64,000 nt of DNA from a virus (taxonomy: Duplodnaviria; Caudoviricetes). The notes below the pieces were generated by a model, which had not been told where the DNA came from, did not search any database, and saw only the letters and a program-made list of their open reading frames with translations. Positions 7,948 through 24,063 of this stretch are shown in pieces. Where the stretch lies: the IMG/VR virus record IMGVR_UViG_3300029305_003192. The stretch is one strand, 5' to 3'. The number at the start of each line of letters is the position of its first letter. Within the stretch, counting starts at the first letter, position 1. Made by a program: the position numbers and the translations under genes.

Positions 7948-8601
7948 ATGCATATTTATGACGGTCCAGATGGTAAACAATACCCATCGGTAACCACAAT
8001 AATCCATGAGATAATGATACATCCAGAACCCTTACTTGCTTGGAGTAACTCACTCGGATTTAAAAGGAAAACATATCAGGGAGCCCTTGACGAATCATCT
8101 GCTAAGGGAACTGCAGTTCATGATTTTATGTATAGCTACATGAAGGACATTAAAGAAGTCAAGACACAAGTACCTATGAAGTTCGCTAGAGAGATATTTT
8201 ACATTGTGGATGAAGCTAAGAAGTTCTTTATCCAGCATAAGATGGGCCCTAAGACTACTACGGATGCTGAGTTAACTTTGATTGATACCGAACTTGGGTA
8301 TGCCGGTACATTAGACTGGGTAGGCGTTAAGGACGGCGTTCTTACACTGGTAGACTACAAGACATCCAAGAAAGCCAGAGAAACTATGTACATTCAATTG
8401 GCGGCATATGATAAACTCCTACAGACTCAGAAGGGCATAAAGGTCGATGAAGCGTGTATACTATTATTACATGATGATGGTGTAAAGGAGTTCATACTAT
8501 GTAGAGAGGCGATTGACCATTATTATGAGATATTCGACCTGCTTCTCCAGATATTCTATAAGATGGAATGTATGGAGTTATTATTACATCATGAGAAATA
8601 G
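7948..8601 (+). CDS. PD-(D/E)XK (Cas4/RecB-like) exonuclease
   Basis: YPSVTTII, GTAVH, YAGTLD, LVDYKTS, QLAAY. Confidence 0.85.
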   Translation: MHIYDGPDGKQYPSVTTIIHEIMIHPEPLLAWSNSLGFKRKTYQGALDESSAKGTAVHDFMYSYMKDIKEVKTQVPMKFAREIFYIVDEAKKFFIQHKMGPKTTTDAELTLIDTELGYAGTLDWVGVKDGVLTLVDYKTSKKARETMYIQLAAYDKLLQTQKGIKVDEACILLLHDDGVKEFILCREAIDHYYEIFDLLLQIFYKMECMELLLHHEK

Positions 8602-8669
8602 CCGTCCAGGCTATTTCTTTTTGTCAACAAACCCTTAATTCTACAACGCTTTATGAAAGGTGGTATAAT

Positions 8670-9668
8670 ATGAAACTTATCCAAGAATCTGATATCTATG
8701 GTTTTATACAGGGCGGTCATACAGATACTATGAACAAGCAGATTGCTGACCTTATCAGCAAGGGTATGAAGATTTGTACAAAAGAAATCGATTACAATAT
8801 CCGCACTGTAGAGAAGGCATTTAAGGACCCTCTCACAGTAGAAGCAATCAATGCTGTAATGGCCGGTACAATTGTACCATTTGTAGCTCTTAATCCTACA
8901 AATGCAATGCCTATGTATATGCCATTCATCAAGTATACAACTTCTAATGGTGATACTAAGGTTGCCATCGACCTTACACAGATGGCTCATATCAAACATG
9001 ACCTTGTTAACGATACTTGGGATATCGACATCAATAATTCCAAGCTCTACGTAATGCTCGTATCAGCTTATGTTTATCTCAACTTCTCTAACAAGACTTC
9101 CGTACTTACACCTACTCTCATGAACCTCACAGGTGATATCTGGGCTAAGCTGGTTCTTAGAATTTTTGATAATAAGTTCGGCCTCGGCACTAACCGCGAA
9201 CGTAAGGAAGCATTCACATACTTCGCTAAGAAGTTCTATCTCAAGAATATCCTCGAAGCGGTAGATGGTGTCATCGAGAATAACGTACTCAATATCTTCC
9301 CTAATAAGAAGAAGAGCCCTATGGTAAATGAGATTGAAGCCGCTATCGCTGATAGAGGTATCAATCTTTATGAGTCATTCCAGACATTCATCACAACTAT
9401 GCTCAATTACGAGATTACCGGTCTCAATGTAAACCGACTCAATCTCCCTAAGGAGAAGATGGGTCTTAGCTTCTTCATGAAGGAATTTGTAACACTTTAT
9501 GGTGCTCCTGCCGGATTCTCTCTTGCGGCATTCCCATACTTTATGTGGATGCTCATATCTGCAAATAACAGAGGTTGGATATTCAACGGTGAGAAGAATA
9601 TCGAAGCTATGTCCAAGAACGAGTTCCCTAAGATTATGACTGAATTCTACAGAATGATCCGTCTCTAA
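8670..9668 (+). CDS. Hypothetical late (probably virion) protein, 332 aa
   Basis: Long ORF with SD; late promoter AACA-N6-TAA at 8626-8638. Confidence 0.7.
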   Translation: MKLIQESDIYGFIQGGHTDTMNKQIADLISKGMKICTKEIDYNIRTVEKAFKDPLTVEAINAVMAGTIVPFVALNPTNAMPMYMPFIKYTTSNGDTKVAIDLTQMAHIKHDLVNDTWDIDINNSKLYVMLVSAYVYLNFSNKTSVLTPTLMNLTGDIWAKLVLRIFDNKFGLGTNRERKEAFTYFAKKFYLKNILEAVDGVIENNVLNIFPNKKKSPMVNEIEAAIADRGINLYESFQTFITTMLNYEITGLNVNRLNLPKEKMGLSFFMKEFVTLYGAPAGFSLAAFPYFMWMLISANNRGWIFNGEKNIEAMSKNEFPKIMTEFYRMIRL

Positions 9669-9670
9669 CA

Positions 9671-9707
9671 AAAAAAATTCCGCAAGGCACTAAGCCTTGC
9701 GGAATTT
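9671..9707. terminator. Bidirectional terminator between convergent genes
   Basis: AAATTCCGCAAGGC/GCCTTGCGGAATTT with A-run. Confidence 0.75.
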
Positions 9708-9718
9708 ATCTTTCCAAA

Positions 9719-9970
9719 TTAGCCCATCAGGGCCATTAGAAAGATAAATATATACCCGAGCAGTCCGAGAAATACCAGCCCGGTTATGTATGTGGCCTTG
9801 CAGACCACATTAAATATTTTCGCCTGGCGCATAGCGCGCTTTGGCGATTCGCCGCGAGATAATGCCGCGGCGAAATAATCCGCAACCGGCTGGTTGCGGT
9901 TATAGAATGTTTCATCGACGTAGTCGAGAAACTTTCCGATAAATGTAAATAAACTGACTATTTTTTTCAT
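9719..9970 (-). CDS. Small early protein with C-terminal TM (cassette D)
   Basis: AAAGGA SD; bipartite early promoter upstream. Confidence 0.7.
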   Translation of the reverse strand: MKKIVSLFTFIGKFLDYVDETFYNRNQPVADYFAAALSRGESPKRAMRQAKIFNVVCKATYITGLVFLGLLGYIFIFLMALMG

Positions 9971-10022
9971 ATTTTTACTTCCTTTCTTTTTACCCGCTTG
10001 TGTTCTTTGCGGGTTTGTGTAC

Positions 10023-10060
10023 TAATATGATATATACATAGATACCCTGAATTACACGGT
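10023..10060 (-). promoter_or_regulatory. Bipartite early promoter ACCGT-N19-TATATATCATATTA
   Basis: Exact consensus match. Confidence 0.75.
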
Positions 10061-10065
10061 ATCGA

Positions 10066-10078
10066 AACAGCCTTATAA
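10066..10078 (+). promoter_or_regulatory. Late promoter AACA-N6-TAA
   Basis: AACAgccttaTAA; same motif precedes many structural genes and matches the published AR9 late consensus AACA-N6-TA/G. Confidence 0.75.
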
Positions 10079-10110
10079 ATCCAATCTTTTAAAGAAGGAG
10101 ATGAAATATT

Positions 10111-13100
10111 ATGCCAGGCGTTAATTCAGGAGGCAGCACCGGCTGCAATAATGCGTGCTATACCAACTGTGCTGCTCAATGTGGTGCTGGATGTGGTGAT
10201 TCCTGCTCCCAGAGTTGTGGCGGTGCATGTTCACGCACATGCTTCGATACATGTGCATCCATGTGTATTGGTTACTGCAGTGCTAGCTGTACTGGTTCTA
10301 CGACTAAGTATGTTAATACTGCTCTTGACAATGGCAGAGAACACCGAGTAGGTGCTCAGCTATATGATTGGGAGTTTAACGATACCTATGACATAAAATC
10401 GGTCGCTAAGGATAATATGACGCTCATCGAGCAGTTGTATTCTCAGTGTATCAAAAACCAGAAGATTAGATGTGATATATCTCGTCTGTATGGTAAGATG
10501 AGCGACTTCGTTTCAGATATCGACATTAATAACGAATTGGGAGTTGGGTTCTTTTCTTATACTCTTGAAGTCCCAATGCAGAATGTTAGATGTCTTAAGA
10601 AGCTTGCACTTAAGCGAGCTAATCCACGTTTATATACAGTAAACGATACCTGCTCAAAGACAGAAATCTTCGAAAGAAGATTGATGCTCTTTATCGACGG
10701 TAGTTATTACCCAGATGTGAGATTCTTTATTGAATATGACAGATTCATCATGGTCATCGAACCATCAAGAACTCTCACTAATGATAAGATTCGAGCAATG
10801 CGTCTTGGCGACGTAACTTGGAGCTTATTAGTCATGCCATTCTCAACCACTCTGGAATTCATCGGTAATACCCAGATGATAAATGGTAGAGAAGGTGCAA
10901 CGCTTACTAAGCACGGATTATTGATTAACAATATGAAGATGACATCGACTACTAAATTCACAAGTAAGAATATGTGGTTGGCGTCGGTTCGATTTAATAA
11001 TCCGATTACCGATGGCTCCGGAAATCCTCCGGCATACAATTGGCGTTCTTTCTCTTTCATTACCAATATGACCACTGTCAATGGTAAACAATATCTGGTG
11101 ATTCCCGAATCCATTAGAAAGAGATTAAATAGCGAACATGACATATACCTCTCATTAAGTGCTATTCCACATGCTAAGGGAAGCGTACATCTTGATACTG
11201 CAAGAGCATTCCAGATTGAATTAGATAAGAATCCAATTCCGCCAGAGAATGTTATCTGTTGGACAATCAACCAGGATGGTTTGGTTAAGTACGTCCACAA
11301 TGCCGAAGTGACTCTGCATTATCCAAACGTATATGAAATCAACAATGTCCCAGATGAAGCTTCGTTGTTTGTGACCTGGTGTCACTGTGACGAGGCATCT
11401 ACTACTTTCATTAATCCTCTCAAGGAGTATATGGAATACAATACATTGTATGCTTCGGATATTATCAATGACCGTATTCCTGAAGCTATCAAGGCTTATA
11501 TTCCGTATAAACACGTGTACTATGAATGGCACTATGCTGAATATCACCGCAAGGCTACTCGTAGATATGAAGAGCCGCTGCTTTATTCATTCGAAACCCT
11601 TAAGGAGCTTCTTGATGACGACGCAAGACGTCTTGAGGGTCTTTATCTCAGGAATGTTCAGGATACGGCTTATAAGTGGCATAGCAATCCTAAGTATCAC
11701 GTTCATATGAATAAATGGGGTTCAATGGCTGATAGAATCAGACGTACTAATGGTCGCGAAATTCGTCACGGCACATATGTCGACTTTGGAATGGATTGTG
11801 TTTATTTCGTAATCGAACATGAAGACGACCGTTCTTACCCAATATGCGTCACTATTGATGGTATCAGATGCATGAATCACTTCCAATATACTGAAGGATT
11901 CCGTACATTCGTATATGTGCCCGCTGCGTTCGTAACTCCTGATTCATTTATCGAATTTGAAGTTATGAAAGTTCGTAGTAACCTCATCAATGGTATAGAT
12001 GTTAAGATGCCGGCTATCCACTTCTCTATGGAGCTTCCTGAGAACTTCCCAGATATATCTCCACAGAATTTCATGATTGCTATTCGTGAAGAAAAGCCGG
12101 ATACTGAAAGTAATGGTGGTATGAAGTACTACTATAGAGTAGCACCTAACTATGAGATGTATTGGCTGATTTTCGGTACTACCAAATATATCAACGGCAT
12201 TCCCGAGGATTATACTACCGAGTATCCCGTAGAGGAAGGAAAGTATACCAATATCCTAACATCATCTGATTCTACTCTCCTCGATGACAGGGGAAATGCA
12301 CTCAAGTTGTCAGATGGTAACTTCTGGTATGGCGGTGATTACCACTATCTGCTCGAATACTGTAAAGGTTGTAAAGGACGCCCTGATTGCAATAGGTTAT
12401 GTTGCGATAAATTCTGCGCCGGCTTATGCGACAATACATGTGGCTGTGAGCATATTCACGAATGCGGCGACTATATCAGTATTATCGAAACTCCTAATAA
12501 GACTGAGGGTCTTCTCGACGAAAATGGTGATCCTATATACCAGGACGTATATCAGGTTCGTGACCTCGGATACTACGCAGATGCAAGAAGACGATTCTAT
12601 CAGTATATGCAGAATGATAAGTATATTATCACCGACGATAGAAATGATTTCGATGACAATCATATCCCAGATCACGAAAAAATGAAGATTAAAGATGGCG
12701 TGCTTTGTAGTGAAGATTGCCAGGTACCTAATCGTGTTAGGGAAAGAATTGACCCGGTGTATATCACACCTATTACAAGCTACTTTGCTCTTAAGAACGT
12801 CCGTATGGTAGCTACTGATATCTACAGAAAGTGGACATTCGTGATTGGTAGAAATGCTAAGGGAGAATTCGACCCGACCTTTAATAAGGTAACCATCGAC
12901 GATTTCTATCTCGAGCCTTCACCAAATAAACTCCGTGTATATATGGATGGTAGACTTCTTGACCCATATACAGATTACGTCATGGACGCTTCTATCAAGA
13001 ACGGCTTCTATCTTGGAAGCTCGGTCAATATCTATATCAAGAAGAAGTTTGTAGCATTTGCTGATATTATGGTAGAATTCCTGCCATATAGATACAATAT

Positions 13101-14331
13101 GCTCTACAGACTTGAGGACGTATCTCTCACAAACTTACAGCTCAGAGAAGCTGTAATTACTAGACCATTCAGTATGGTATATTACGACGTCTATGTAAAT
13201 GGTGAGAAACTTGCCCCAGAGGACGTTACTGTAGTAACACCTTCTAAGATTATAATCAATAAGGAACTTCATAACGATATCGTATCTTTCTACGAAAGAT
13301 GTCATGACCAGGATATCTATGAAAATGACAGATATATGAAACAGGCACTCGTCGATGCGATTGCTACTGAAATAACAGGATTCCGCGAATATCTGCTTCC
13401 AGAATTCGCTAAGGCTGATATCGTAGATAATATCTATGCACCAGCGGGATGTTCCGGTACATGCACTACTGCTTGTACTACTTCCTGTACCATCATGTGT
13501 GGTTCATCATGTGACACATTCTGCGGTAAGGGATGTACTGGTTCCTGTGAGAATACATGCTTCAATGAAGCTGGAACCACTGCTTGTGGTGGATGTGCCG
13601 TAGGATGTTCGGCTGTTTGTTACGGCTGTGCTGGTACATGTATAGGTATGGCAAGTGCTAGACCAAACGCATGTAAGGACTGTACTACTCAATGTGGTAG
13701 TAGCTGTATCGGTACTTGCATAGGCACATCCGGTGGAGTTACTACATGTGAAGGATGTGCTGGTAATTGTGCCGGAACATGCTATCAGTCATGTAGTGGT
13801 ACATCATCAGCAAATGGATGTTATGGTTGCGGCACAACATGCATGTATGAATGCTCCAACTGTACCGGTACTTGTACTGGTTCAGCAGAAGGACTTATAT
13901 CAGTACCGGAAGCATGTAATGGATGCTCATCTTCATGCGGTACTGCATGTAGTGATAACTGTACCGGTACGTGCTTCAGCGGATGTAGCCAATCTTGTGC
14001 TGGATGCTCTGGTTCATGTGACAATACATGTGAAAACCATTGTACTGGAACATGTGAGAATGGATGTCTCTCAGATTGCTCAGGCTCATGCTCCAATACA
14101 TCTGCCCGTGATACATCAGTCACATCTTGCTCCGGTTGCTATGCGTCTTGCCTTGGAAACTGTATGACAACGAACGCGTCTTCTACTGAATGTAGTGGAT
14201 GTGGACACCTTTGCACCAATGCTTGTATTGGTAGATGTACAGGCTCTTGCGACAGCTTATGTCGTGGCACATGCTCGACATCTTGCGTATCTTCGGATAA
14301 TGTAAGAACTATGGCGGCCCAATTCTATTAA
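10111..14331 (+). CDS. Large late/virion protein (1406 aa) with terminal CxxxC repeat arrays
   Basis: 13 Cys at 4-residue spacing at the N-terminus, ~61 Cys in the last ~290 aa, central Cys cluster; late promoter and SD. Confidence 0.8.
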   Translation: MPGVNSGGSTGCNNACYTNCAAQCGAGCGDSCSQSCGGACSRTCFDTCASMCIGYCSASCTGSTTKYVNTALDNGREHRVGAQLYDWEFNDTYDIKSVAKDNMTLIEQLYSQCIKNQKIRCDISRLYGKMSDFVSDIDINNELGVGFFSYTLEVPMQNVRCLKKLALKRANPRLYTVNDTCSKTEIFERRLMLFIDGSYYPDVRFFIEYDRFIMVIEPSRTLTNDKIRAMRLGDVTWSLLVMPFSTTLEFIGNTQMINGREGATLTKHGLLINNMKMTSTTKFTSKNMWLASVRFNNPITDGSGNPPAYNWRSFSFITNMTTVNGKQYLVIPESIRKRLNSEHDIYLSLSAIPHAKGSVHLDTARAFQIELDKNPIPPENVICWTINQDGLVKYVHNAEVTLHYPNVYEINNVPDEASLFVTWCHCDEASTTFINPLKEYMEYNTLYASDIINDRIPEAIKAYIPYKHVYYEWHYAEYHRKATRRYEEPLLYSFETLKELLDDDARRLEGLYLRNVQDTAYKWHSNPKYHVHMNKWGSMADRIRRTNGREIRHGTYVDFGMDCVYFVIEHEDDRSYPICVTIDGIRCMNHFQYTEGFRTFVYVPAAFVTPDSFIEFEVMKVRSNLINGIDVKMPAIHFSMELPENFPDISPQNFMIAIREEKPDTESNGGMKYYYRVAPNYEMYWLIFGTTKYINGIPEDYTTEYPVEEGKYTNILTSSDSTLLDDRGNALKLSDGNFWYGGDYHYLLEYCKGCKGRPDCNRLCCDKFCAGLCDNTCGCEHIHECGDYISIIETPNKTEGLLDENGDPIYQDVYQVRDLGYYADARRRFYQYMQNDKYIITDDRNDFDDNHIPDHEKMKIKDGVLCSEDCQVPNRVRERIDPVYITPITSYFALKNVRMVATDIYRKWTFVIGRNAKGEFDPTFNKVTIDDFYLEPSPNKLRVYMDGRLLDPYTDYVMDASIKNGFYLGSSVNIYIKKKFVAFADIMVEFLPYRYNMLYRLEDVSLTNLQLREAVITRPFSMVYYDVYVNGEKLAPEDVTVVTPSKIIINKELHNDIVSFYERCHDQDIYENDRYMKQALVDAIATEITGFREYLLPEFAKADIVDNIYAPAGCSGTCTTACTTSCTIMCGSSCDTFCGKGCTGSCENTCFNEAGTTACGGCAVGCSAVCYGCAGTCIGMASARPNACKDCTTQCGSSCIGTCIGTSGGVTTCEGCAGNCAGTCYQSCSGTSSANGCYGCGTTCMYECSNCTGTCTGSAEGLISVPEACNGCSSSCGTACSDNCTGTCFSGCSQSCAGCSGSCDNTCENHCTGTCENGCLSDCSGSCSNTSARDTSVTSCSGCYASCLGNCMTTNASSTECSGCGHLCTNACIGRCTGSCDSLCRGTCSTSCVSSDNVRTMAAQFY

Positions 14332-14354
14332 TCCTTTCATATAAAATCAACGGA

Positions 14355-14391
14355 AATAACCCCCAATACCATTATGGTATTGGGGGTTATT
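14355..14391. terminator. Hairpin terminator between convergent genes
   Basis: AATAACCCCCAATACCA/TGGTATTGGGGGTTATT. Confidence 0.7.
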
Positions 14392-14412
14392 CCTTCTTGA
14401 AAGGAGTATTTC

Positions 14413-15474
14413 TTATGAGAACGAAAATTCGGAGAATTCTTCAACTGGTTCGATAGACTGGAGGGAAGCTGGTGAGAGTCCCTGTGCGTCTTCTCGACGG
14501 ATTTCTTCAGAAGCACGTGCATCGTCCTTGATGATATTTCCTTCAATAAAGCCGGAAAGCTTTTCGAGAACAGCGTATGCTTTCCTCTGCTTTTCGAGAG
14601 CAGAAACATTCTGCTCATACGGCATTGTTTCATCGAGATACTGCTGCATTGAACGTGCCTTAGTATCAATCTTTACAGCTGTACGGTAATAGATTGTAAT
14701 AAGACCACGGATAGCACCAACTACCGCAATGAATCCTGTAATTGAAACAGCTGCAATGATAGCAGCTGTAGAAAGAGCTGTTGCAATACCAATAACAGAT
14801 TCGCGAGCAACTGTAGTGGTCGTCTTGAACTTATTGATATTTGTGGTACGGAACGCGCGAATCATCTTAGACCATTCACCGTTACCGAATACATTATTGA
14901 GGCTACGAACGCTCTTCATGAGAGTCTTCGCAGAATGAGCGGGCTTAATTGTCTTAATCATGCCAACACCCTTGGGTCCGAGAACTTCATTTTCAGCCTC
15001 GATAAGTGCGAGCATTGCGACATCCACGAGAGCCAGACATGCAGACTGATATGTGAGAACGATAAAGCTGTTATTAGTCTTATAGCCATACTCGAAGTCT
15101 GGTCTGAGTTCTACGAGATGTCGGTAAAGTTCGTCAGCACAACGAACTGTTTCATTATTCGGAGCAAATGATTTACCAAGGTCAATAGCCGATGCAATGT
15201 ACTGATGTACATTCCACTTCATAATATTACCCTTAGTATTAGGAATAGTACCAAAGTCCACTCCTTCAGCACGCGCTTCTACTCTCTTAATAAGATAAGA
15301 GGCGTACTTACTTGTATATGTATCCTTACGATTGCCAGAGATTCTGTCAATCGCTTCTGTAGCAGCAGTCATATCTTCAGCGATGAACTGCTTAAGCTCC
15401 ATCATTTCACGACCCTTGAGAGAATCGAGAGAAGTCTGTACTGCTTCAGTAGCACTACCAAAATTAAAGTACAT
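14413..15474 (-). CDS. Putative virion head protein with a hydrophobic segment, 353 aa
   Basis: Late operon; ATE/ARE motifs of the jumbo-phage prohead-protease type; long hydrophobic helix. Confidence 0.6.
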   Translation of the reverse strand: MYFNFGSATEAVQTSLDSLKGREMMELKQFIAEDMTAATEAIDRISGNRKDTYTSKYASYLIKRVEARAEGVDFGTIPNTKGNIMKWNVHQYIASAIDLGKSFAPNNETVRCADELYRHLVELRPDFEYGYKTNNSFIVLTYQSACLALVDVAMLALIEAENEVLGPKGVGMIKTIKPAHSAKTLMKSVRSLNNVFGNGEWSKMIRAFRTTNINKFKTTTTVARESVIGIATALSTAAIIAAVSITGFIAVVGAIRGLITIYYRTAVKIDTKARSMQQYLDETMPYEQNVSALEKQRKAYAVLEKLSGFIEGNIIKDDARASEEIRREDAQGLSPASLQSIEPVEEFSEFSFS

Positions 15475-15489
15475 AGCAATTCACCTCCA

Positions 15490-16965
15490 TTAATATCCAT
15501 ATCTACCCTGAGTAGCACCCATAATCTTCATGGCTGCACTCATGGAGTTTTCATCAATGTCCTTAGCGGCTGTGCCCTTCATGGCATTGATAGTTGTTGT
15601 GGCATAATTATCCCAGGAGTCAAGCATTGTAGATACAATACCTGCATCTACATCGACAATCTGAACGCCGAGAAGATAAAGGGCATCCATAAGTCTTCTT
15701 GCCATTGCTGGGTCAGTAAGGTCATAACCAGCGGCTTCTTTCACACGATTAACTGTATTCATGGAAATACAGATGGTTGTGAATGGGTTTACTGTCTGAT
15801 CACCAAACTTGAATGTTCTTGCACTGTTCTTACGGCGTCTCATAGCACCGAAGTAACCTGCGAATCTATCCTTTGTAATAGCATCCGATTTAATCTGAGA
15901 GATATTGAAAATCAAATCTCTTACGATCTTAGTCTCACCACGTGTCCACTTAACGAACTGGAATGCAGCATGGTTGCCCTGGAGAGCCGCAATGATATTG
16001 GCAGCCATAGCATCTGCTCTGATGATGGATGGCATACACTTTACACCGATAAGTGCCTTCTGTACCTTACCACCGCCCTGTGGATCTCTTACGAAGAACT
16101 CAACGGTCATGAGTGTAGGTTCAAGGGATGACATCTTATCGCTCTTAACAATAGCGGCATTACCGAGGGATTTACGACTGTCAGAAGCAAGCTGGTCAGT
16201 TGTACGACCCATGAATACATCTGCTTTATATCCGTTAGCATTTGCATCATTATACTTCTCACGGAAGGTTCTCTTTGTCTCGAAGTCGTTAGCCGCTTCG
16301 AGAGCCGCAGCGGTCTTATGAATCTTATTAACCATCTGCTCGGTAGGATTATAAAGACCATTGACGGATTCCATAGAGATATAATCTTCGACCTGGTCCC
16401 ACATATGGTCAATATCATTCTTAGAAACCATATTAGGAACTGTCTTCATACCAAGAACTTCTACTTCATCGGACTCGTTCCAAAGAGCAGAATCTCTTGC
16501 AGGAGTTACCATTTCGTTAGTTGATGCTGGGAGATGACCACGGGACGGTGAGTCATATGTACCGCGGTAAGCGTTAATATTTCTTGTAAGGTTACCCGCA
16601 TAAGAAATCATATCAGGTGTTTCTTCATTGAGATGATACTTACGAACGAAGTCACGTACACCACCGTTGGATGTAGGATCTACACCGAAAGCTGTGTCTG
16701 CAGACCAAAGAGCAAGCTGGAGTGCAGCATATGTCTTTTCGTTAGCCTTAACGAGAACCACCTGTGTATCATATGGGATATCACTATCAAGATAAACTGG
16801 ATACTGCATAATGAGGTCCTTAGTGAGAGCACTAAGGCTGTTTTTTCTATTCATACCCTGTACTGTACGTGCAGCGGTAAGAACTGGCTTAGCTGTATTG
16901 GCGAGTTTATCGGTACCAATATTAAAATTGATATTGTTGATACCGCCAACTGAGTTCTCTGCCAT
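15490..16965 (-). CDS. Putative virion structural protein, ~490 aa
   Basis: Late promoter AACA-N6-TAA at 17026-17038 (-); SME/ALE motifs in a central linker. Confidence 0.6.
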   Translation of the reverse strand: MAENSVGGINNINFNIGTDKLANTAKPVLTAARTVQGMNRKNSLSALTKDLIMQYPVYLDSDIPYDTQVVLVKANEKTYAALQLALWSADTAFGVDPTSNGGVRDFVRKYHLNEETPDMISYAGNLTRNINAYRGTYDSPSRGHLPASTNEMVTPARDSALWNESDEVEVLGMKTVPNMVSKNDIDHMWDQVEDYISMESVNGLYNPTEQMVNKIHKTAAALEAANDFETKRTFREKYNDANANGYKADVFMGRTTDQLASDSRKSLGNAAIVKSDKMSSLEPTLMTVEFFVRDPQGGGKVQKALIGVKCMPSIIRADAMAANIIAALQGNHAAFQFVKWTRGETKIVRDLIFNISQIKSDAITKDRFAGYFGAMRRRKNSARTFKFGDQTVNPFTTICISMNTVNRVKEAAGYDLTDPAMARRLMDALYLLGVQIVDVDAGIVSTMLDSWDNYATTTINAMKGTAAKDIDENSMSAAMKIMGATQGRYGY

Positions 16966-17110
16966 GTTTATCATATCCTTTCATTAGAGAATGGTATATG
17001 CTCGGCTACCACCGAGCATACTACTTTAAAGTCCTGTTCCGGCACCATTCTCTCAACAAGAAAAAATAATACCCTATGCCCATTCGGACATAGGGTATCT
17101 TTAACAGCAT

Positions 17111-17590
17111 TTATCTAGCCATCAATGCTTTCTTAAACGCTGGATTTCTTTCTGCATAAACACTGATAGGCATACAGCTATCTACATCAAGAACGTCTGG
17201 CTGATTATACTTGTTAATTTCTTTAACGAGCTTGTCAAGTTCAGCATTATGACGTCTCTTCTTTGTGCCCTTCTTAGGCTTTCTACCCTTAAGGTCGAAT
17301 GCCTTGATAGCAGTCTGAGCAACACTCTTCTGGTATTCAGCATGAGCTTCTGGATTTTCAGCTCTTACTTCTTCTGGAGCAAGTGCCATTTCCATTGTTG
17401 TTGCTGGAGCCTTATTTGCCTTATGCTCCTTAACCTTCTTAATGAGCTTCTTGATGAGCTTAATAGCAGTAATTGTACCGCCGATAAGTGAAAGAGCTCC
17501 GAAAACAATCTTAAGTGGTCCTGCGGTGATGAAGAAGTTCTTAACAGCACCGAGGAGACCGAGAAGAATTGATTTAATTGCCATGGTCAT
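17111..17590 (-). CDS. Lys-rich early protein with N-terminal membrane segment
   Basis: AAAGGAG SD; early core TATATATAAT at 17644-17653; hairpin terminator at 17069-17098. Confidence 0.7.
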   Translation of the reverse strand: MTMAIKSILLGLLGAVKNFFITAGPLKIVFGALSLIGGTITAIKLIKKLIKKVKEHKANKAPATTMEMALAPEEVRAENPEAHAEYQKSVAQTAIKAFDLKGRKPKKGTKKRRHNAELDKLVKEINKYNQPDVLDVDSCMPISVYAERNPAFKKALMAR

Positions 17591-17738
17591 TTCTCTCCTT
17601 TCCATTAACGCTTTGGAGAGACTATCCGTTTAATCACATCGCTATTATATATACTCGATTTGGCGGACCCTATTTTTCATGGGTCCGAAACACATCTGTA
17701 ATCATCCATACAAATAATGAAATGAGGTGATATAAATA

Positions 17739-18806
17739 ATGGTAAAATCTAACGAAGGTTCATTAACTAGAAACGGCGGTAGTGCGAGTGTTACTGAAGA
17801 AGCTCTATTTCCCGTACTTGATAAAGGTCTTGTATCTGTAGAAATGCCAGGTTCAAATAACCCTGACTACAATTTACAAGTAGACAGAGGTGTCGCAGAT
17901 TCTATGACAGATATTCCTGGTGTGGACCCATTCACAATGAAATCGTTTAACCGTTACTATAAAATATTCCCGGATGATGAGGCAACTGCAGTACTCAACT
18001 ATATCTTCATAGTGAGACCTGACCTCAATATGGATTATTGCGTAGCTCATGATTCATATTATAAGAATCTAGCAATGCAGTGCCCTAGAGTCATCATGAG
18101 TCTCACTCAATCATATAGTGGACCAAACGGTCTCGGAGCACATATGCCAGACCATCATTTTATCCCATGGCTCGTACCGCGTACTGTAAATGACCAGCTC
18201 CCAGATATATCTCTGAAAACGTACGATTATGAGCAACCATTTACAAACTTTCATAGTACGTATGCGGGCAATGCCAATGATTCTCGTTCTGGTGCTCAAA
18301 TGACACTGACATTTAGAGAGACTAAGAAGATGGAAGTAACGAAATTCTTTGATGGATGGGTCAGATACATCGACGGTGTGAATCTGGGTTCATATAGTCC
18401 TAAGAGAGAATATTGCCAGTCTAAGATACTTAACGGTGGTATAATTCTCGATTATGCTACATCAGTATATCAAATAGGCGTATTGCCATCTGGCTCGGAA
18501 ATCGTCTTCATACATAAGACCACGGGTCTTTTCCCAACTGAAGTGCCAATCAGTTCATGGGCTCATGAAGGTAGACCAACCGAAAATCAGCAAATAAGTA
18601 TTACATTTGCTGGTGGTTTTCCCGAGGCATTTGACCCGTCTATATTCGCAGACTTCAACTATAACGCCGGAATGAAAGGCGTCACGGCAGCATATGCCGA
18701 AACTGCCGGATTTAATAGACCGGTTGTAGGAACTCCATTCATTACATACAGTGGTAAAACTGAACGTTATTACCTCAGATGGGGTAGAATGAGTTACTCA
18801 TATTGA
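17739..18806 (+). CDS. Tail tube-like/baseplate tube-initiator protein (T4 gp19/gp48/gp54 fold suspected)
   Basis: LTFRET...FFDGW...GLFPT...ISITF pattern; late promoter at 17689-17701; upstream of the gp6-like gene. Confidence 0.55.
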   Translation: MVKSNEGSLTRNGGSASVTEEALFPVLDKGLVSVEMPGSNNPDYNLQVDRGVADSMTDIPGVDPFTMKSFNRYYKIFPDDEATAVLNYIFIVRPDLNMDYCVAHDSYYKNLAMQCPRVIMSLTQSYSGPNGLGAHMPDHHFIPWLVPRTVNDQLPDISLKTYDYEQPFTNFHSTYAGNANDSRSGAQMTLTFRETKKMEVTKFFDGWVRYIDGVNLGSYSPKREYCQSKILNGGIILDYATSVYQIGVLPSGSEIVFIHKTTGLFPTEVPISSWAHEGRPTENQQISITFAGGFPEAFDPSIFADFNYNAGMKGVTAAYAETAGFNRPVVGTPFITYSGKTERYYLRWGRMSYSY

Positions 18807-18825
18807 ATAGAAAGGAGTGAGCATT

Positions 18826-21800
18826 ATGAGTTATAAAGACTATACCAATCCGGCAGTCGCCATGAATGATTGGTTTGAAAATATTGCTCCAAAATACTTT
18901 AACTTTAACGTCGCAGAGCTCCATAGAACCGGTATATTCGGGTATACCAATGAAGTAATGTCGACGGTTGAAAATGATACAGCTCACGCTGTATCTATAG
19001 CCCGCCGTGAGTTTTATCCAACAACGGCTCAGTATACCAAGTCTCTTTATAAGATGGCTGCACTTCAGCAGATTTCATATCCTTTTGCACATGCTGCTCA
19101 AGCAACTGCTATATTACTAATACAGGAATCCGATATCATCAGTTGTGGAGAATATAATGGGCAGAGATATAGATTCGTACTTGATAATACCATGCTAATC
19201 GATGCCGGGGGAATACCTTTCCGCATGGACTACCCACTCGTAATTATTGCTAAGAAAAGAAATGTCGGGGATACTATATTATCAAATCCTCAAGAAGCTG
19301 CTACGGGTACTAAGGCTAAATATGCTTACACTGTAAGATATGATACATCTCGATCGAATGATATATCCAGACTTAATAACTATTATATCACATATCGTAC
19401 GGTAACTTACAATAACACACCTTACTTATTGGTAAAAGTAAGTTTACATCAGTGCACGGAGATTATTATGACTGACATGATCAATAAATCTCCAGTCATC
19501 AATAATATCGAGATGGACTTTCCGTTTGATGGTAAGATATGTAACTTCGAAGTATTTTATTCGGACTCTGAAGGTACCGCAGTAACGCAGCTCACAAAAT
19601 TACCCCTCAATTCAAACCCAATCAATGGTAATTTCTGCATGTATAGCATGGTCGATCCACAGACTCTTAGAATCACATTCCCAGAAAATCAGTACTTCAC
19701 TCCAAAGTTTAACTCGAGTCTCACAGTTAAAATCTATACCACAATGGGTTCCGAGGGTAATTTCGCATCATACTCAGGATCACTGTTATGTACTCCAAGC
19801 AGTGAAGATTATCCGTATAACAATACATGTGTTATATCTGGTCAATTACAGGGAAGCTCACTCGGTGGAGTGGATTTTCCATCACAGGAAGATTTCAGAA
19901 ATGATGTAATCACCGCTTATGCTACCAATAAGACAATCACTACCGAGAACGATTTACAGATGTACTTTGACTCAGTAATGACAGATACCAGAAATAAGGT
20001 TGTATTCCAAAAGAAACGCGATGATGTATTCGAGCGTTTATATGCAGCATATATGATTTTGAAAGATCTTAACGGCAATATCGTTCCTGCAAATACACTG
20101 AACCTTGACCTTGAGGAATCGCAGCTTGATGTCGTGATAGAGTCATTTGGTAAATCAGTGGTTAAACCGGGCCATGTCCTCCGATATCAGAAAGAGGGTC
20201 ACTATTATCATTCATATTATGACTTATATAAGACGGATGCTAACCTCAATACAGATATCAATGATAACGTCGATGATTTCTCATATACAAACATATTCCT
20301 CATGCAGATTATGAAGTCTCCAAATATGGTAGGTTTCTATCTTAATACGGTTAATGAAACTATCGATATCACACCGGTAAGAGACAGATCCGCCGAGGAT
20401 ACCAATAATGATATATCGTATTTACAGTTTAATGTCAGTGCTGTAAATATCATGAGAAATGCTATCCGTGGTGAGAACTTTTATAAACTTACCGTCAGTA
20501 TGCAGCCATCCATCGTAAGCTCAGGATTCGAGGAAATGGCATTTATATCCGCCGAGGATTTGAGAGATGGTGAAGTAGACACATTCCCTCTGGAAATTTG
20601 TGCAGATTACGGTGGTATAGTTGAGGGCTTTGAATGGCATGACAGTGACGGACCTAATACAGGTGGATCCGTATACATGGTGATTAGATATAAGCCCGAT
20701 ATCCCCGGTGTCACACGGCAGACTATAACTAAATATGTCGAAGAGGATTGGATGCCTAACGATAAGGACAACCCAGACGATCTCAGGGTATGGATTCGCG
20801 TAAATTCGCCTGTTTACTATACCGAAAATCCTAATGGTCAGCGTATTTTTGATACTCCTACATGGTATTCGACCGAGCTTCAGGCGGGTGATAAGTTTAC
20901 CGCCGGTTCCATTATTGCCACACGAAAGCCCAAAGATACCGGCGTCCTTAGAGTAGTAGCTGAGTTTAAGACTGAAATCGGACTTTACGTCCCATTGTCA
21001 TTGGATAGTTATGATCCGGATACGGATTCTTATACATTTGCCGCATATCTGGCTACTGAGGACTACATCAACGAGGATGGTAGGTTAGTCATCAATGGAA
21101 GTTTTTGCAATATGCTTGGTGACTATCGCTCCGCCGTTGCGATAGACCCTACCGATTGTGATATTTACATATCGACATTCCTGCAATATGACGATTTTAA
21201 CTTCGAGCACAAGTTTATGAACTATGCATACTTGAAAAATCACACCCTCACTAACATATTCGAATCTACTGGTAATAAACTCAATTTCTTATTACCGATG
21301 AAATTCATCCGTTCCACGGTTTCATTCTTCGACATGATTAGACCGGATCCCAAAGGTAATATTAAAGTAATTATGTCTGGATCCGGCAGCATGTTTATCA
21401 AGACATATCAAAATGGTATATCACTAAATTATGGTGTAGCCTATGTTATGACCGATGATTATGGAGAAGATGACATTTACTATCTATACCGTGGGCCGTT
21501 ACCACCTAACGTAAATAGTGATTTATGTTGCAATCATCCGGATTGTGATGCATATGTCAAACGCATGAATCTTTTACCTGGTATATATACTGACGCAAGC
21601 GGTAAGCATATATTTATCGAACCGTCGGAAGAGGATAGATTCGATTATAATATAAAGGATAATGAGGGAAAGGCGAGAAATACCCCCGCATGTAGAATAT
21701 CTAGCATCCCTCTTATACGATCTAACTGGTTGCGAAATTCCGGCAACGTGTTCGATTTAGTACAGATAATCAGACGTAATTATGATTATTTGCTACAAAT

Positions 21801-22284
21801 ATACGATCTGCTTGAGAATAACTACTCTATCGATCTTAAATTCTTTAACACATACGGCAAATCCAGATTTTTCCGTATTGGTATTAAGAACGACGATATG
21901 GTTACGCTCAATAAGGTTAACGTCGTACCACGATTCGGTGTTAAACTCAATATGCTTTCACCTTACGCCGAATTTGAAGGTAGATTCGTCGCTTTCGTCA
22001 AGGAGTATATCGAGTCATTTAATGATGTTACTAATAAGGGTAAAGCTATCCTTATAATGGACCTCATAACTGCTATCAAGAATAACTTCCCGGAAATCGA
22101 AAGACTTGAGTACTACGGTATCGATAATTATAACGTAAACGTTGCACAAATCATCGATACTATGACGGACGAAGAAATTCGTAAGCTTGAATGGATGCAG
22201 TACGTGCCCGAATTTATCAACATTTACTGTGATTATCATGATAATATACTCGAGCCTAAGATCGATATCCAGATACTTGAGTAG
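18826..22284 (+). CDS. Baseplate wedge subunit, T4 gp6-like
   Basis: IYTTMGSEGN...SLGGVDFPSQEDFRN...TITTENDLQMYF matches the gp6/BplJ motif. Confidence 0.75.
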   Translation: MSYKDYTNPAVAMNDWFENIAPKYFNFNVAELHRTGIFGYTNEVMSTVENDTAHAVSIARREFYPTTAQYTKSLYKMAALQQISYPFAHAAQATAILLIQESDIISCGEYNGQRYRFVLDNTMLIDAGGIPFRMDYPLVIIAKKRNVGDTILSNPQEAATGTKAKYAYTVRYDTSRSNDISRLNNYYITYRTVTYNNTPYLLVKVSLHQCTEIIMTDMINKSPVINNIEMDFPFDGKICNFEVFYSDSEGTAVTQLTKLPLNSNPINGNFCMYSMVDPQTLRITFPENQYFTPKFNSSLTVKIYTTMGSEGNFASYSGSLLCTPSSEDYPYNNTCVISGQLQGSSLGGVDFPSQEDFRNDVITAYATNKTITTENDLQMYFDSVMTDTRNKVVFQKKRDDVFERLYAAYMILKDLNGNIVPANTLNLDLEESQLDVVIESFGKSVVKPGHVLRYQKEGHYYHSYYDLYKTDANLNTDINDNVDDFSYTNIFLMQIMKSPNMVGFYLNTVNETIDITPVRDRSAEDTNNDISYLQFNVSAVNIMRNAIRGENFYKLTVSMQPSIVSSGFEEMAFISAEDLRDGEVDTFPLEICADYGGIVEGFEWHDSDGPNTGGSVYMVIRYKPDIPGVTRQTITKYVEEDWMPNDKDNPDDLRVWIRVNSPVYYTENPNGQRIFDTPTWYSTELQAGDKFTAGSIIATRKPKDTGVLRVVAEFKTEIGLYVPLSLDSYDPDTDSYTFAAYLATEDYINEDGRLVINGSFCNMLGDYRSAVAIDPTDCDIYISTFLQYDDFNFEHKFMNYAYLKNHTLTNIFESTGNKLNFLLPMKFIRSTVSFFDMIRPDPKGNIKVIMSGSGSMFIKTYQNGISLNYGVAYVMTDDYGEDDIYYLYRGPLPPNVNSDLCCNHPDCDAYVKRMNLLPGIYTDASGKHIFIEPSEEDRFDYNIKDNEGKARNTPACRISSIPLIRSNWLRNSGNVFDLVQIIRRNYDYLLQIYDLLENNYSIDLKFFNTYGKSRFFRIGIKNDDMVTLNKVNVVPRFGVKLNMLSPYAEFEGRFVAFVKEYIESFNDVTNKGKAILIMDLITAIKNNFPEIERLEYYGIDNYNVNVAQIIDTMTDEEIRKLEWMQYVPEFINIYCDYHDNILEPKIDIQILE

Positions 22285-22344
22285 TACCCAAAAACAAGCT
22301 AATAAATCTCAATACTATTATATTACAAAGGAAGTGTGATTACT

Positions 22345-24063
22345 ATGCATAGATTAAATGGTCTTAAGCCAAATAGACAGGCAATCGAAAATGCTGTTGG
22401 TGATATCTTCCTTGAGAAGGCATTCGAAGCCGCAATTCAGACAATTGCGGCTAATGCTTTCCCAGGAATCGATACACTCAGACAGAGTAATGGAATTCAT
22501 AAGTTTATGAAATTTACTCACAATGCTCTCGAAGCAGCTGGTGGATATCAGGCACTTCTCAACGCTATCGATACTGAGAAGGACCCTGCTAAGCTTCATT
22601 TCCTCACAGAACTCAATTATATCTGTGTGGATACCGCTCTTGAAGCATCTACAAGATTCGCTATGGAAGCTGCTGAAGATGAGATTGAAGAAGCAGTTGA
22701 CGAAGGGGAAGACCCAATCGAGGGTATCGAAAACGATGGTGACCCAAACATTGACGACGAACTCAACGAAGAGGGCGAACTCGAAGAACCACCTGCAGAG
22801 GAACCTGCTAAGAAGATTCTTCCTGGCAAGGACCTTCAGACACTCGCACTCGATACTCCTCTTAACGAAAAAGAGCTCAAGAAACTCGGTTCTAACCTCA
22901 GAACCCTTGATACTCCTAAGATTGCAAAGATTGTAAACGATAAAATCGTCGATGCTATTGAGACTGAGAAGAAGGCTTACCAGGAAATTGATGAAGCTAA
23001 CGACCGTCTCAAGGCAGCTCTCACTGAAAAGGAAGAGCTCTACAATAAGTCCGAGCAGGAAGCTCTCGACTCCGTAAACAGAGTTCTCGGTATTACTCTC
23101 GGTGAAGGCACTCCGCGTGACCACGTTTCACTCTTCTCTACACTCCAGGTAAATTCTGCTACAGCTCTTCTCTCTGCAACAGAAGGTGTTGAAAATGCCA
23201 GCATCGATAAGGTTGCTACAAGAGTACTCTGTCGTACAATTCCTGAGAAGTTTAAGGAGAATACATCCCTTTCTGCTTCTATCGAAGAGGCTATTGGTGC
23301 TCAGCTTGCTACAGCAAATCCTGCAATGGCAGATGCCGCTGGTAAGGAGAAGCTTCTTAAGCTCTCCACATTCATCTCTACGATGGTACTTACAGTTATC
23401 GAAACACTTTATACTCTCAATCTCCACAAGTATACTTGTCAGGACATTGAAGGTATTGTAAAGACAAAGGGCTTTGATAACTGCATGACCAAGTCTATCA
23501 CTGCTAATGTAAATCAGGCTGCATGTGATGCTATCGAACAGTGTAAGAAACACGTAAACGGTACTAAGGATGTAGGTGCACTTGAATCTGCTCTCGAGTC
23601 CGTTATTAAGCTTCACGATAAGATTGTGGATATCGAACGCAAGGGTGTGGCTATCAATAAGGAAACTAAGGAAGCCATCGAAAGCGTTCAGACAGCTATC
23701 GTTGAACGCACTCACAAGCTTTCTGCAGAATTCGATGCTGCTACAGAGGGTTGTAGTTATGCTGCATCTCTCAGAAACGAGCTCGGCATGAAGAACGATA
23801 TTGTTGCTATGGAGCACTTTGGTGCGCTTATTAATCGTAAGAAGCCAAACAAGCTCATCTGTACACTCTCTGAAGAAGGTGCTATGGAAGCAACATTCAT
23901 GAGAGACAATAACCCGTACTTCACAAACTCCATTGCTCTCGAGGGTAGCTTCGAAGCTATTGGTGTAGAGAATTATGTCAATATGCTCATGAAGAAGGCT
24001 GGCGTTGATAAGATTACTTACTCCAACGACAGAAAGCCCGAATTCAAGATTATCGTAAGATAA
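22345..24063 (+). CDS. Putative proteolytically processed head (inner/ejection) protein
   Basis: Late promoter at 22293-22305; more than a dozen A/S-x-E motifs (ALE, AME, ATE, AFE, AIE); acidic linker. Confidence 0.65.
   Translation: MHRLNGLKPNRQAIENAVGDIFLEKAFEAAIQTIAANAFPGIDTLRQSNGIHKFMKFTHNALEAAGGYQALLNAIDTEKDPAKLHFLTELNYICVDTALEASTRFAMEAAEDEIEEAVDEGEDPIEGIENDGDPNIDDELNEEGELEEPPAEEPAKKILPGKDLQTLALDTPLNEKELKKLGSNLRTLDTPKIAKIVNDKIVDAIETEKKAYQEIDEANDRLKAALTEKEELYNKSEQEALDSVNRVLGITLGEGTPRDHVSLFSTLQVNSATALLSATEGVENASIDKVATRVLCRTIPEKFKENTSLSASIEEAIGAQLATANPAMADAAGKEKLLKLSTFISTMVLTVIETLYTLNLHKYTCQDIEGIVKTKGFDNCMTKSITANVNQAACDAIEQCKKHVNGTKDVGALESALESVIKLHDKIVDIERKGVAINKETKEAIESVQTAIVERTHKLSAEFDAATEGCSYAASLRNELGMKNDIVAMEHFGALINRKKPNKLICTLSEEGAMEATFMRDNNPYFTNSIALEGSFEAIGVENYVNMLMKKAGVDKITYSNDRKPEFKIIVR

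Follow-up and report, generated by a model that had tools for sequence, protein, structure and literature searches.

Cysteine ladders on a jumbo phage baseplate protein as candidate substrates for enzymatic stapling

Thioether chemistry by radical SAM enzymes has been described for small peptides and, since 2026, for one archaeal protein (PMC13692751). In this latter example, from Methanococcus voltae, CrpC, a radical SAM/SPASM enzyme of the separate family TIGR04463, places ranthionine links on CrpA, a 28.8-kDa Cys-rich protein. The substrate is a full-size cellular protein, modified in its C-terminal region; this region is repetitive and Cys-rich, is made of a 17-residue unit with the pattern C-x-x-Q/D, and is modelled by AlphaFold with low confidence (PMC13692751). 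PapB, of the freyrasin ranthipeptide system, acts on a peptide and joins Cys to Asp or Glu (PMC9413430). In the CXXX-repeat system, the targets are short peptides or paralogs, described by models of 18–98 positions, with Cys at every fourth residue and small residues between. No published biochemistry of this system was found in the literature. We know of no characterised enzyme of the maturase family TIGR04115, and a literature search for one found none.

The closest structural counterparts come from jumbo phages. The structure 9XQD is that of the phiKZ outer peripheral baseplate, where gp27 (898 residues) is named the ‘core framework’ and belongs to the platform at which fibres attach (PMC13250141). 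A homolog of gp27, Goslar gp220, is located on the baseplate spokes (PMC13742148). A Cys-rich extension is not described for gp27 or gp220, and the word ‘cysteine’ is absent from the Goslar paper (PMC13742148). Literature searches on cysteine-rich virion proteins of jumbo phages found nothing relevant; the same was true, in those parts of the sources that were available, for links between radical SAM/SPASM enzymes and phage tail fibers.

The window analysed here is a stretch of 64,000 nucleotides within a viral record of 156,816 bp. On its plus strand is a gene (10111..14331) for a gp27-like baseplate protein of 1406 aa with Cys ladders. A Shine-Dalgarno motif, AAGGAG, can be read directly 10 nt 5′ of the ATG (10095..10100, plus strand), and a terminator-like hairpin of 19 pairs (14353..14393) separates the gene from a convergent gene at 14413-15474. 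A late promoter had been proposed and was not confirmed, as a sigma-70 model identified no sigma-70-like site 5′ of the gene. The gene is flanked on both sides by matches to virion PHROGs, and a tail-tube Pfam family is also represented among its neighbours. The genome is that of a gut-type jumbo phage of the phiKZ/AR9 type, roughly 240 kb in length, with markers that include RNA polymerase beta subunit PHROGs, a divergent family B DNA polymerase, DnaB, a T4-like portal, and tail-tube families; the setting, with a multisubunit RNA polymerase and virion-gene neighbours, thus resembles that of phiKZ gp27. An identical protein occurs on 15 public contigs. Searches of the whole protein found no families in Pfam and NCBIfam, and in PHROGs the best match had an E value of only 0.0037. 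In 50,697 phage records searched by tblastn, the whole protein, its tail, and a 377-aa ladder protein from the same record were all unmatched, with the low-complexity filter probably hiding the ladders.

The protein contains 97 Cys (6.9%), and the arrays described in the original prediction were confirmed to the base. The N-terminal ladder (10144..10290, plus strand; residues 12-60) has 13 Cys in CxxxC register, with a spacing of exactly 4, and the C-terminal ladder (13450..14286, plus strand; residues 1114-1392) has 61 Cys in eight blocks of 10, 6, 5, 5, 6, 16, 4, and 9, the last seven of which (blocks 2-8) open with CxxC. A further Cys/His cluster was likewise found where it had been placed (12361..12465, plus strand; residues 751-785), as an insertion with 10 Cys together with His781 and His783 in a low-confidence loop, without a match in NCBIfam. 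The Cys register does not arise by chance, since the longest runs with a spacing of exactly 4 are far above the maxima in 5000 shuffles of each region: 13 against 5 for the whole protein, 10 against 6 for the tail alone, and 13 against 6 for the first 66 residues. Nor are the ladders a recent DNA repeat, since Tandem Repeats Finder identified just three arrays, of 1.9-2.6 copies, and the ladder codons are diverse. The two ladders contain 12 and 43 CxxxC steps, with Gly/Ser/Thr/Ala at 0.64-0.68 of the positions in between, Asp/Glu/Asn/Gln at 0.16 of ladder positions, and Pro absent. An AF2 model of the tail from 11 sequences had a pLDDT of 32.6, and thus no fold can be assigned; as noted above, low confidence is also seen in the Cys-rich region of CrpA. 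A feature-based comparison of the tail with the ESM Atlas gave no usable match. For the whole protein, phmmer matched no PDB sequence, and the only match in a profile search of the PDB, a 38-residue CxxxC plant peptide (E 0.83), was not taken as meaningful.

Between the two terminal ladders lies a conserved core of ~1000 aa (10309..13446, plus strand; residues 67-1112), which had been described as beta-rich and virion-like. Structural comparisons bear this out and point to the fold of phiKZ gp27, at the outer periphery of the baseplate. The AF2 model of the core (mean pLDDT 67.9, pTM 0.44, with model residues 635-766 below 50) has as its best Foldseek match 9xqd_G, with an E value of 2.8e-9 and a probability of 1.00, the runner-up having an E value of 1.4e-3. 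VIA gave a Z score of 13.0 with 566 residues aligned (8.3 for the runner-up), in an alignment of model residues 37-1008 with chain residues 6-763; the high rmsd of 17.8 Å arises because domain orientations differ in the multi-domain model. We identify chain G as gp27 because it has the 898 residues stated for this protein in the published description (PMC13250141). The likeness extends over most of the core, whereas the lengths differ (898 residues against 1406) and sequence homology was not detected, either by phmmer or by a 17-sequence profile searched against all PDB sequences. The model of the core is best explained as a jumbo phage counterpart of phiKZ gp27 and Goslar gp220, the framework of baseplate spokes and outer rim. 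The proposal of a tail appendage therefore holds in that the fold is that of a virion protein, but the location is better placed at a baseplate spoke or rim.

Comparison of homologs demonstrates strong conservation within the C-terminal ladder along with turnover of the ladders as modules. Across 11 sequences, 48 of the 61 tail Cys are invariant and 7 more are at least 90% conserved, against 9 invariant positions among the other 233 tail residues, and the pattern of blocks (for example 34434, 3444, and 344444434444444) is kept in homologs down to ~42% identity; together these observations indicate that the ladders are under selection and are not filler. The C-terminal ladder is present in 10 of 16 homologs and absent in six, with ladder length ranging from ~280 to ~700 residues, and PF27846 is annotated on 9/10 of the ladder-bearing homologs and 0/6 of those without. 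In relatives that are at least 80% identical, the N-terminal ladder has 0, 7, 13, or 15 Cys, and the internal Cys/His insertion occurs only in the window variant, being absent from a 93%-identical protein (P0001) and from every other homolog. No relatives of the core were found in viral_contigs, and the one found in metagenome_contigs (L001) is ladder-less. Judged from these alignments, the ladders are accessory modules on a conserved core, of which the N-terminal one is optional and hypervariable. This swapping of cassettes between near-identical phages raises the possibility that the ladders are exposed parts which make contact with the host or which the host targets.

The kinship to CXXX-repeat sequences that had been proposed is evident from composition and register, but in HMM searches against the CXXX-repeat target models both arrays fell under the curated cut-offs. 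For TIGR04114 (cut-off 20), the C-terminal ladder scored at best 18.9 bits in a profile search and 14.3 by hmmscan, and the N-terminal ladder scored 16.2 bits by hmmscan, with 20.5 bits for TIGR04117 (cut-off 50) and 9.4 bits for TIGR04118 (cut-off 35). In the same hmmscan, four of five phage ladder proteins encoded beside maturases had no match and the fifth, a 538-aa protein at locus L024, had 12.8 bits for TIGR04117, which indicates that these models are insensitive to phage ladders. In composition and steps, the arrays are of one kind with the phage ladders found beside TIGR04115 maturases: CxxxC steps have a share of 0.81 here and 0.85 in 16 maturase-adjacent IMG/VR ladder proteins, and Gly/Ser/Thr/Ala have shares of 0.68 and 0.67, respectively. 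In contrast with the short CXXX-repeat targets, here the repeat occurs at as many as three sites of a 1406-aa phage virion protein, away from the enzyme and with scores below cut-offs.

As originally stated, there is no radical SAM gene in the window, nor is there one anywhere in the 156,816-bp record. Evidence for an association comes instead from contig sizes, as a link by identical lengths rather than by a single sequence with both genes. The window protein is identical over 1406/1406 residues to a protein (P0257) whose longest contig is 239,651 bp, and the longest contig of a maturase (P0282; 438.7 bits for TIGR04115, cut-off 350) is also 239,651 bp, both coming from the same three sources. 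Relatives repeat this observation, with ladder-capped homologs and maturases sharing exact contig sizes of 44,388, 99,195, 67,866, 218,411, and 214,557 bp, and among ladder-capped-homolog contigs of at least 40 kb, six of eight are matched exactly in size by a maturase contig. Co-occurrence with a radical SAM enzyme, as anticipated, thus finds indirect support in these matches but not in the record itself, where no maturase lies within 156,816 bp. The enzyme had been suggested to be phage- or host-encoded; the shared 239,651-bp contig, along with the five further exact matches, makes a phage-encoded one most likely. For contigs of ladder-less homologs (153,330, 148,746, 43,937, 26,824, 21,168, and 128,141 bp), no maturase match occurred among the best 120 matches and cluster members. 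Three distant jumbo relatives (G002-G004) have a maturase and a ladder-less gp27-like protein, which means that the enzyme does not need such a substrate. Viewed from the maturase, 14/16 IMG/VR loci have a ladder protein in their flanks; the single check from the ladder side (1/1; L016) found a 937-aa fibre-like protein with an internal ladder 1.1 kb 5′ of a TIGR04115 maturase (430 bits). In the lineage studied here, the maturase has an intein inside its CxxxCxxC motif.

Free ladder proteins are also encoded in the record: at its end, next to a fibre-like gene, are the gene for the 377-aa ladder protein and a further ladder ORF that is cut off. The gene order at this end is syntenic with that of locus L024, where six ladder proteins and a maturase follow. 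At its N-terminus, the 377-aa protein has a domain of ~125 aa that recurs in ladder proteins encoded beside maturases in other phages (E 8e-14 and 6e-8). This ladder operon begins ~12.7 kb 5′ of the 1406-aa gene, with helicase, SbcD, and exonuclease genes intervening, and so the gene lies outside the operon and within the record has no maturase adjacent to it. An exact 53-base word from the record end had no match in viral_contigs. The two ends of the record do not join. A ladder ORF is interrupted at one end and, at the other, an ATPase, which from recognised motifs we take to be SbcC/Rad50-like; the in-frame read-through between them is coincidental.

These observations, drawn from sequence comparison and a modelled fold, suggest that part of the virion is probably stapled chemically by the phage itself. 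We consider it somewhat better than an even chance that the ladders are enzyme-stapled appendages on the baseplate rim. A gp27 counterpart would be extended by a C-terminal ladder, and in some variants also by such modules at the N-terminus and in one surface loop; the phage would further encode a TIGR04115 maturase of the radical-SAM/SPASM kind, along with free ladder proteins. Once spliced, the maturase would act on the ladders inside the infected anaerobic cell and convert each CxxxC run to a chain of small thioether rings, giving stiff appendages at the baseplate periphery that may be redox-insensitive and protease-resistant where disulfides are unreliable. The thioether is proposed from weaker matches of the phage maturases to PapB (171-187 bits, cut-off 340), their second-best family, whereas TIGR04463, the family of CrpC, gives only 42-71 bits. 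Several observations go against stapling: the acceptors used by PapB- and CrpA-type systems (Asp, Glu, Gln) occupy a small share of ladder positions, at 0.16; an N-terminal ladder that begins at residue 12 cannot be preceded by a leader peptide of the classical type; and the record has no maturase, the gene lies outside the ladder operon, the arrays score under the cut-offs, the tail has no AF2 fold, and distant maturase-bearing relatives have a ladder-less gp27-like protein. The C-terminal ladder is preceded by the whole body of 1100 aa. A fuller account is held more tentatively, at rather less than even odds: that a virion protein of more than 1400 residues is matured in the manner of a RiPP by the phage's own intein-gated TIGR04115 enzyme, with cassettes at the termini and surface loop becoming thioether-ring chains that, in an anaerobic habitat, would take the place of disulfides and be redox-proof.

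Different models can be proposed for the same ladders. It may be that those on the 1406-aa protein are not substrates, and that metal (Zn, Fe, or Fe-S) or disulfides formed after lysis stabilise a fibrous module, with the maturase serving small free ladder proteins only. Combinations of CxxC and of Cys with His are common in metal sites, and here CxxC opens 7/8 blocks and His accompanies Cys in the loop insertion; the location outside the ladder operon, the lack of a fold for the tail when AF2 is used without ligands, and the ladder-less gp27-like proteins of maturase-bearing relatives also fit this model. We regard it as unlikely, since composition and step pattern are indistinguishable from those of maturase-adjacent ladders, six of eight long ladder-capped-homolog contigs share a size with a maturase contig, and blocks of 5, 5, and 9 and the total of 61 misfit both fully paired disulfides and sets of four ligands. 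In this respect, the hosts are probably anaerobes, where disulfides would be unstable.

Another possibility is that the ladders are docking sites, to which free ladder proteins attach by intermolecular links made by the maturase, or by a metal-bridged zipper, to form a covalent fringe on the baseplate rim. The phage has several such free proteins (the 377-aa protein and at least one more), the N-terminal domain of the 377-aa protein recurs in maturase-adjacent ladder proteins of other phages, and phiKZ gp27 belongs to a fibre-attachment platform (PMC13250141). Contact from ladder to ladder is purely conjectural, however, and known radical SAM thioether enzymes form intramolecular links (PMC13692751), which makes docking less probable still. 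A reading in which the arrays are tolerated as spacers, disordered or of low complexity, and have no specific role would account for the AF2 pLDDT of ~30, the variation in length from ~280 to ~700 residues, and the six ladder-less homologs, but invariance of 48/61 Cys amid variable intervening residues, a block register kept at ~42% identity, and diverse codons without a repeat at the DNA level make such spacers highly improbable.

Stapling by the maturase, if true, would represent a new mode of building virus particles, in which a structural protein is covalently stapled by an enzyme. It would also provide a biological role for the CXXX-repeat system and show by what means phages that infect anaerobes keep exposed appendages stable without recourse to disulfides. 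Residues 1100-1406 offer a large, defined, and naturally fused candidate substrate for working out the action of TIGR04115.

The Cys arrays described in the original prediction withstood recounting: the open reading frame at 10111-14331 (+ strand; 1406 residues, 97 Cys in total) is real, and the nucleotide coordinates of its arrays are exact. A ribosome-binding site (AAGGAG) is located 10 nt 5' of the frame and a hairpin of 19 pairs (14353-14393) lies directly 3' of it; no sigma-70-like site that would bear out the proposed late promoter was found upstream, in a search that may not fit the promoters of the phage's own polymerases. The N-terminal ladder, as we call these arrays of mostly CxxxC register, covers residues 12-60 and contains 13 Cys at a spacing of exactly 4 throughout. 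The C-terminal ladder, or tail (residues 1114-1392), contains 61 Cys in eight blocks (10, 6, 5, 5, 6, 16, 4, and 9 Cys), with CxxC at the start of blocks 2-8, and a separate cluster of 10 Cys and 2 His is found at residues 751-785. The longest runs of exact 4-spacing are 13 in the N-terminal array and 10 in the tail, compared with at most 5 in 5000 shuffles of the whole protein and at most 6 in 5000 shuffles of either array with its own composition kept. No tandem repeat at the DNA level was found beneath the arrays.

Between the ladders lies a core (residues 67-1112) for which a search of 5.8 billion proteins identified 16 homologs, with identities of 22-93%. An AlphaFold2 model built from their alignment is mostly beta (mean pLDDT 67.9; at least 70 for 624 residues). 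The window protein has no sequence-level match among all PDB chains; the best structural match of the core model is 9XQD chain G, the baseplate protein gp27 in the outer peripheral baseplate of phiKZ (Foldseek E 2.8e-9, probability 1.00; runner-up 1.4e-3). VIA-align scored this pairing at Z 13.0 over 566 aligned residues (model 37-1008; runner-up 8.3), and the rmsd is high (17.8 Å), as expected of a multi-domain model with pTM 0.44. Together, these comparisons of a predicted model uphold the earlier proposal of a structural protein, in the form of a gp27-like baseplate fold. One report describes gp27 as an 898-residue component and the 'core framework' of the fibre-attachment platform (PMC13250141), and another names Goslar gp220 as its homolog, which occupies each spoke in two copies, between the inner and the peripheral baseplate (PMC13742148). 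At the end of the core, two domains (model 838-927 and 929-1008) are similar to the small beta domains with which tail fibres and tailspikes begin (Z 6-8 in VIA-align), a likeness of common fold only.

Homologs of the PHROG class 'virion structural protein' flank the gene (8670-9668, 14413-15474, and 15490-16974), with a tail-tube-like gene nearby (17739-18806). The 156,816-bp virus record to which the window belongs encodes homologs of multisubunit RNA polymerase beta subunits, a divergent family B DNA polymerase and DnaB, along with a T4-like portal, a prohead protease, and tail-tube families; this combination of genes marks its source as a jumbo phage of the phiKZ/AR9 type. A metagenome contig with a ladder-less homolog (L001; 31% identical) has the same virion and replication genes as 7948-24063 of the window. 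Its gp27-like gene lies between a 468-aa gene and an exonuclease, and that of the window past the exonuclease and a 332-aa gene, so that the module with this gene is rearranged between the two.

A C-terminal ladder is present in 10 of the 16 homologs, where it extends over ~280 to ~700 residues with up to 161 Cys per protein; in the other six (896-1104 aa) the chain stops at the end of the core. Among the 11 sequences that have a ladder, 48 of the 61 tail Cys never vary and another 7 reach at least 90% conservation, while the other 233 tail residues include only 9 invariant positions. The block spacing strings 34434, 3444, 344444434444444, and 344 are retained in proteins whose cores are ~42-47% identical. 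Such patterns indicate that the ladders are added modules under selection. The N-terminus (window 10111-10320) was compared among members of one cluster formed at 90% identity, together with P0002 (80% identical). Its ladder has 15 Cys in P0001 and P0260, 13 in the window protein, and 7, in a different sequence, in P0258 and P0259, and it is missing in P0261 and P0002. There are, then, at least four states (no ladder, 7, 13, or 15 Cys) in proteins whose remaining sequence is at least 80-90% identical; P0003, at 59% identity, has 8 Cys. This variation resembles an exchange of cassettes at an exposed terminus, and such trading of ladder caps among near-identical phages would be new. Among the sequences compared, the window's variant alone has the Cys/His cluster, an insertion into a loop region that was modelled at pLDDT below 50; for the tail, AlphaFold2 gave no usable model (pLDDT 32.6).

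The original prediction also invoked a dedicated modifying enzyme. Neither Radical_SAM nor TIGR04115, the family of CXXX-repeat radical-SAM/SPASM maturases, has a match across the 156,816-bp record, and no thioredoxin-type, Erv-type, or lanthipeptide enzyme was found among its 142 ORFs (E 1e-4 or better). The record, which CheckV estimates to be 65% complete, terminates within a run of ladder genes. These are the gene for a 377-aa protein (L007:2712-3842, + strand), with an N-terminal domain of ~125 aa followed by a ladder (53 Cys, 49 of them in ladders), and a third ladder frame, incomplete at the record's end (L010:1646-1784, + strand). Together they occupy G000:C1:155534-156816, on the minus strand of the window and ~2.6-3.9 kb ahead of its first base. 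They are preceded by a 593-aa fibre-like gene, whose product matches a tail-fibre repeat below threshold (24.4 bits against a cut-off of 27).

Contig sizes link a maturase to the window protein. P0257, identical to the window protein at 1406 of 1406 residues, is found on 15 contigs, the longest of 239,651 bp. The maturase P0282 (653 aa; TIGR04115, 438.7 bits) is found on 20, which come from the same three sources and likewise reach 239,651 bp at most. The record's 156,816 bp are 65% of this length, equal to the CheckV estimate. Exact size pairs of homolog and maturase are also formed by P0001 and P0168 (44,388 bp), P0002 and P0283 (99,195 bp), P0261 and P0286 (67,866 bp), P0010 and P0303 (218,411 bp), and P0271 and P0175 (214,557 bp). 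Among the matches listed, six of the eight ladder-capped-homolog contigs of at least 40 kb have a maturase counterpart of identical size, and those of 202,680 and 73,601 bp are without one; the chance expectation for such pairings is ~0.01, by a rough estimate from the ~190 listed maturase contigs. None of the six ladder-less homolog contigs was paired among the matches listed, a weak contrast. Identical contig sizes are a new and independent line of support for the maturase link. P0282 carries a Hint/intein module (residues 50-205) directly after the second Cys-x-x of its CxxxCxxC radical-SAM motif; because the motif is split, cluster binding is possible only after splicing. A maturase and small ladder proteins also occur in G002-G004, three complete genomes of distantly related jumbo phages. 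The gp27-like frame of G002 is ladder-free (989 aa from ATG), and the 997-aa open frames of G003 and G004 suggest by their size that theirs are too. The association runs in one direction only, with the maturase also present beside a ladder-less gp27-like protein.

Searching IMG/VR by ladder similarity gave one locus, L016, where a fibre-like protein of 937 aa contains a ladder internally and a TIGR04115 maturase (430 bits; cut-off 350) follows 1.1 kb downstream. In this unrelated 91.5-kb phage record (L016:9170-11983), a beta-sandwich-like N-terminal part is followed by the ladder and then by C-terminal 'W-K-N-Y-D-G-T-G-T-G-T-G-P' repeat units; ladders may therefore serve as internal stalks, not just as end caps. 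From the maturase side, an alignment of 26 maturases identified 16 IMG/VR loci, 14 of which have a ladder protein within their flanks; the other two gave the weakest matches. Judged from their ORF tables, the 14 represent about 9 distinct groups and are therefore not independent. L024 combines a 708-aa maturase with a fibre-like gene and six ladder proteins, and its genes 1-2 have matches in the window's record (E 1e-12 and 2e-24), namely the 99-aa and 593-aa genes ahead of the ladder genes. Ladder proteins next to a maturase in L028 (E 8e-14) and L029 (E 6e-8) match the N-terminal domain of the 377-aa protein.

The giant's tail closely resembles 16 maturase-adjacent ladder proteins in its share of CxxxC among CxxC and CxxxC steps (0.81 vs 0.85) and in Gly/Ser/Thr/Ala between Cys (0.68 vs 0.67). 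In both, Pro is absent and the middle position is Gly-enriched. The proposed kinship with known CXXX targets was borne out in part: the giant's arrays match TIGR04114 (18.9, 16.2, and 14.3 bits; cut-off 20) and TIGR04117 (20.5 bits; cut-off 50), weakly and always under the curated cut-offs. Of five maturase-adjacent phage ladder proteins, four have no match to the target models and one reaches 12.8 bits to TIGR04117, so failing the cut-offs counts against formal membership rather than against the mechanism.

The analysis shows a baseplate protein of gp27-like fold whose Cys ladders are conserved and modular, and a TIGR04115 maturase, carried by phages on contigs that have the same size. The maturase would modify the giant's ladders and most likely convert them into small thioether rings in series, and these would stiffen the appendage. 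After TIGR04115, the phage maturases score best with PapB (171-187 bits) and then with the SCIFF and CcpM maturases, all far under the cut-offs; these are thioether-forming enzymes. Protein-sized substrates have a precedent, since a 2026 report shows that a Cys-rich protein of 28.8 kDa receives ranthionine links from a rSAM/SPASM enzyme of a different family (PMC13692751). A literature search on the CXXX-repeat family or any phage version of it found nothing. The new element is that a conserved, distant baseplate-rim protein is capped by the ladder as well, in up to three places.

There are rival readings of the ladders. Metal or disulfides could stabilise them with no enzyme action. Free ladder proteins may instead dock ladder-to-ladder with the giant. 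The ladders might also be a functionless spacer, a reading to be set beside their retained Cys and spacing. Enzymatic modification of the ladders, as originally interpreted, is largely borne out by genomic association, and its chemical part is unproven.

Several further genes were noted in the same record. Two paralogs of PHROG 12252 (unknown function) lie 12 kb apart on opposite strands of the window, at 42930-43568 (+; E 2e-36) and 55096-55908 (-; E 1e-45). A 3396-aa protein (L003:54-10241, - strand) has a Peptidase_C39-like domain at residues 2328-2436 (33.3 bits), and a 131-aa STIV_B116-like protein (L004:9980-10372, - strand; PF08960, 31.1 bits) belongs to the family of AcrIII-1 ring nucleases. 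A 738-aa protein (L005:799-3012, + strand) matches Cpn60/TCP-1 chaperonins across its first 280 residues (54.1 bits).
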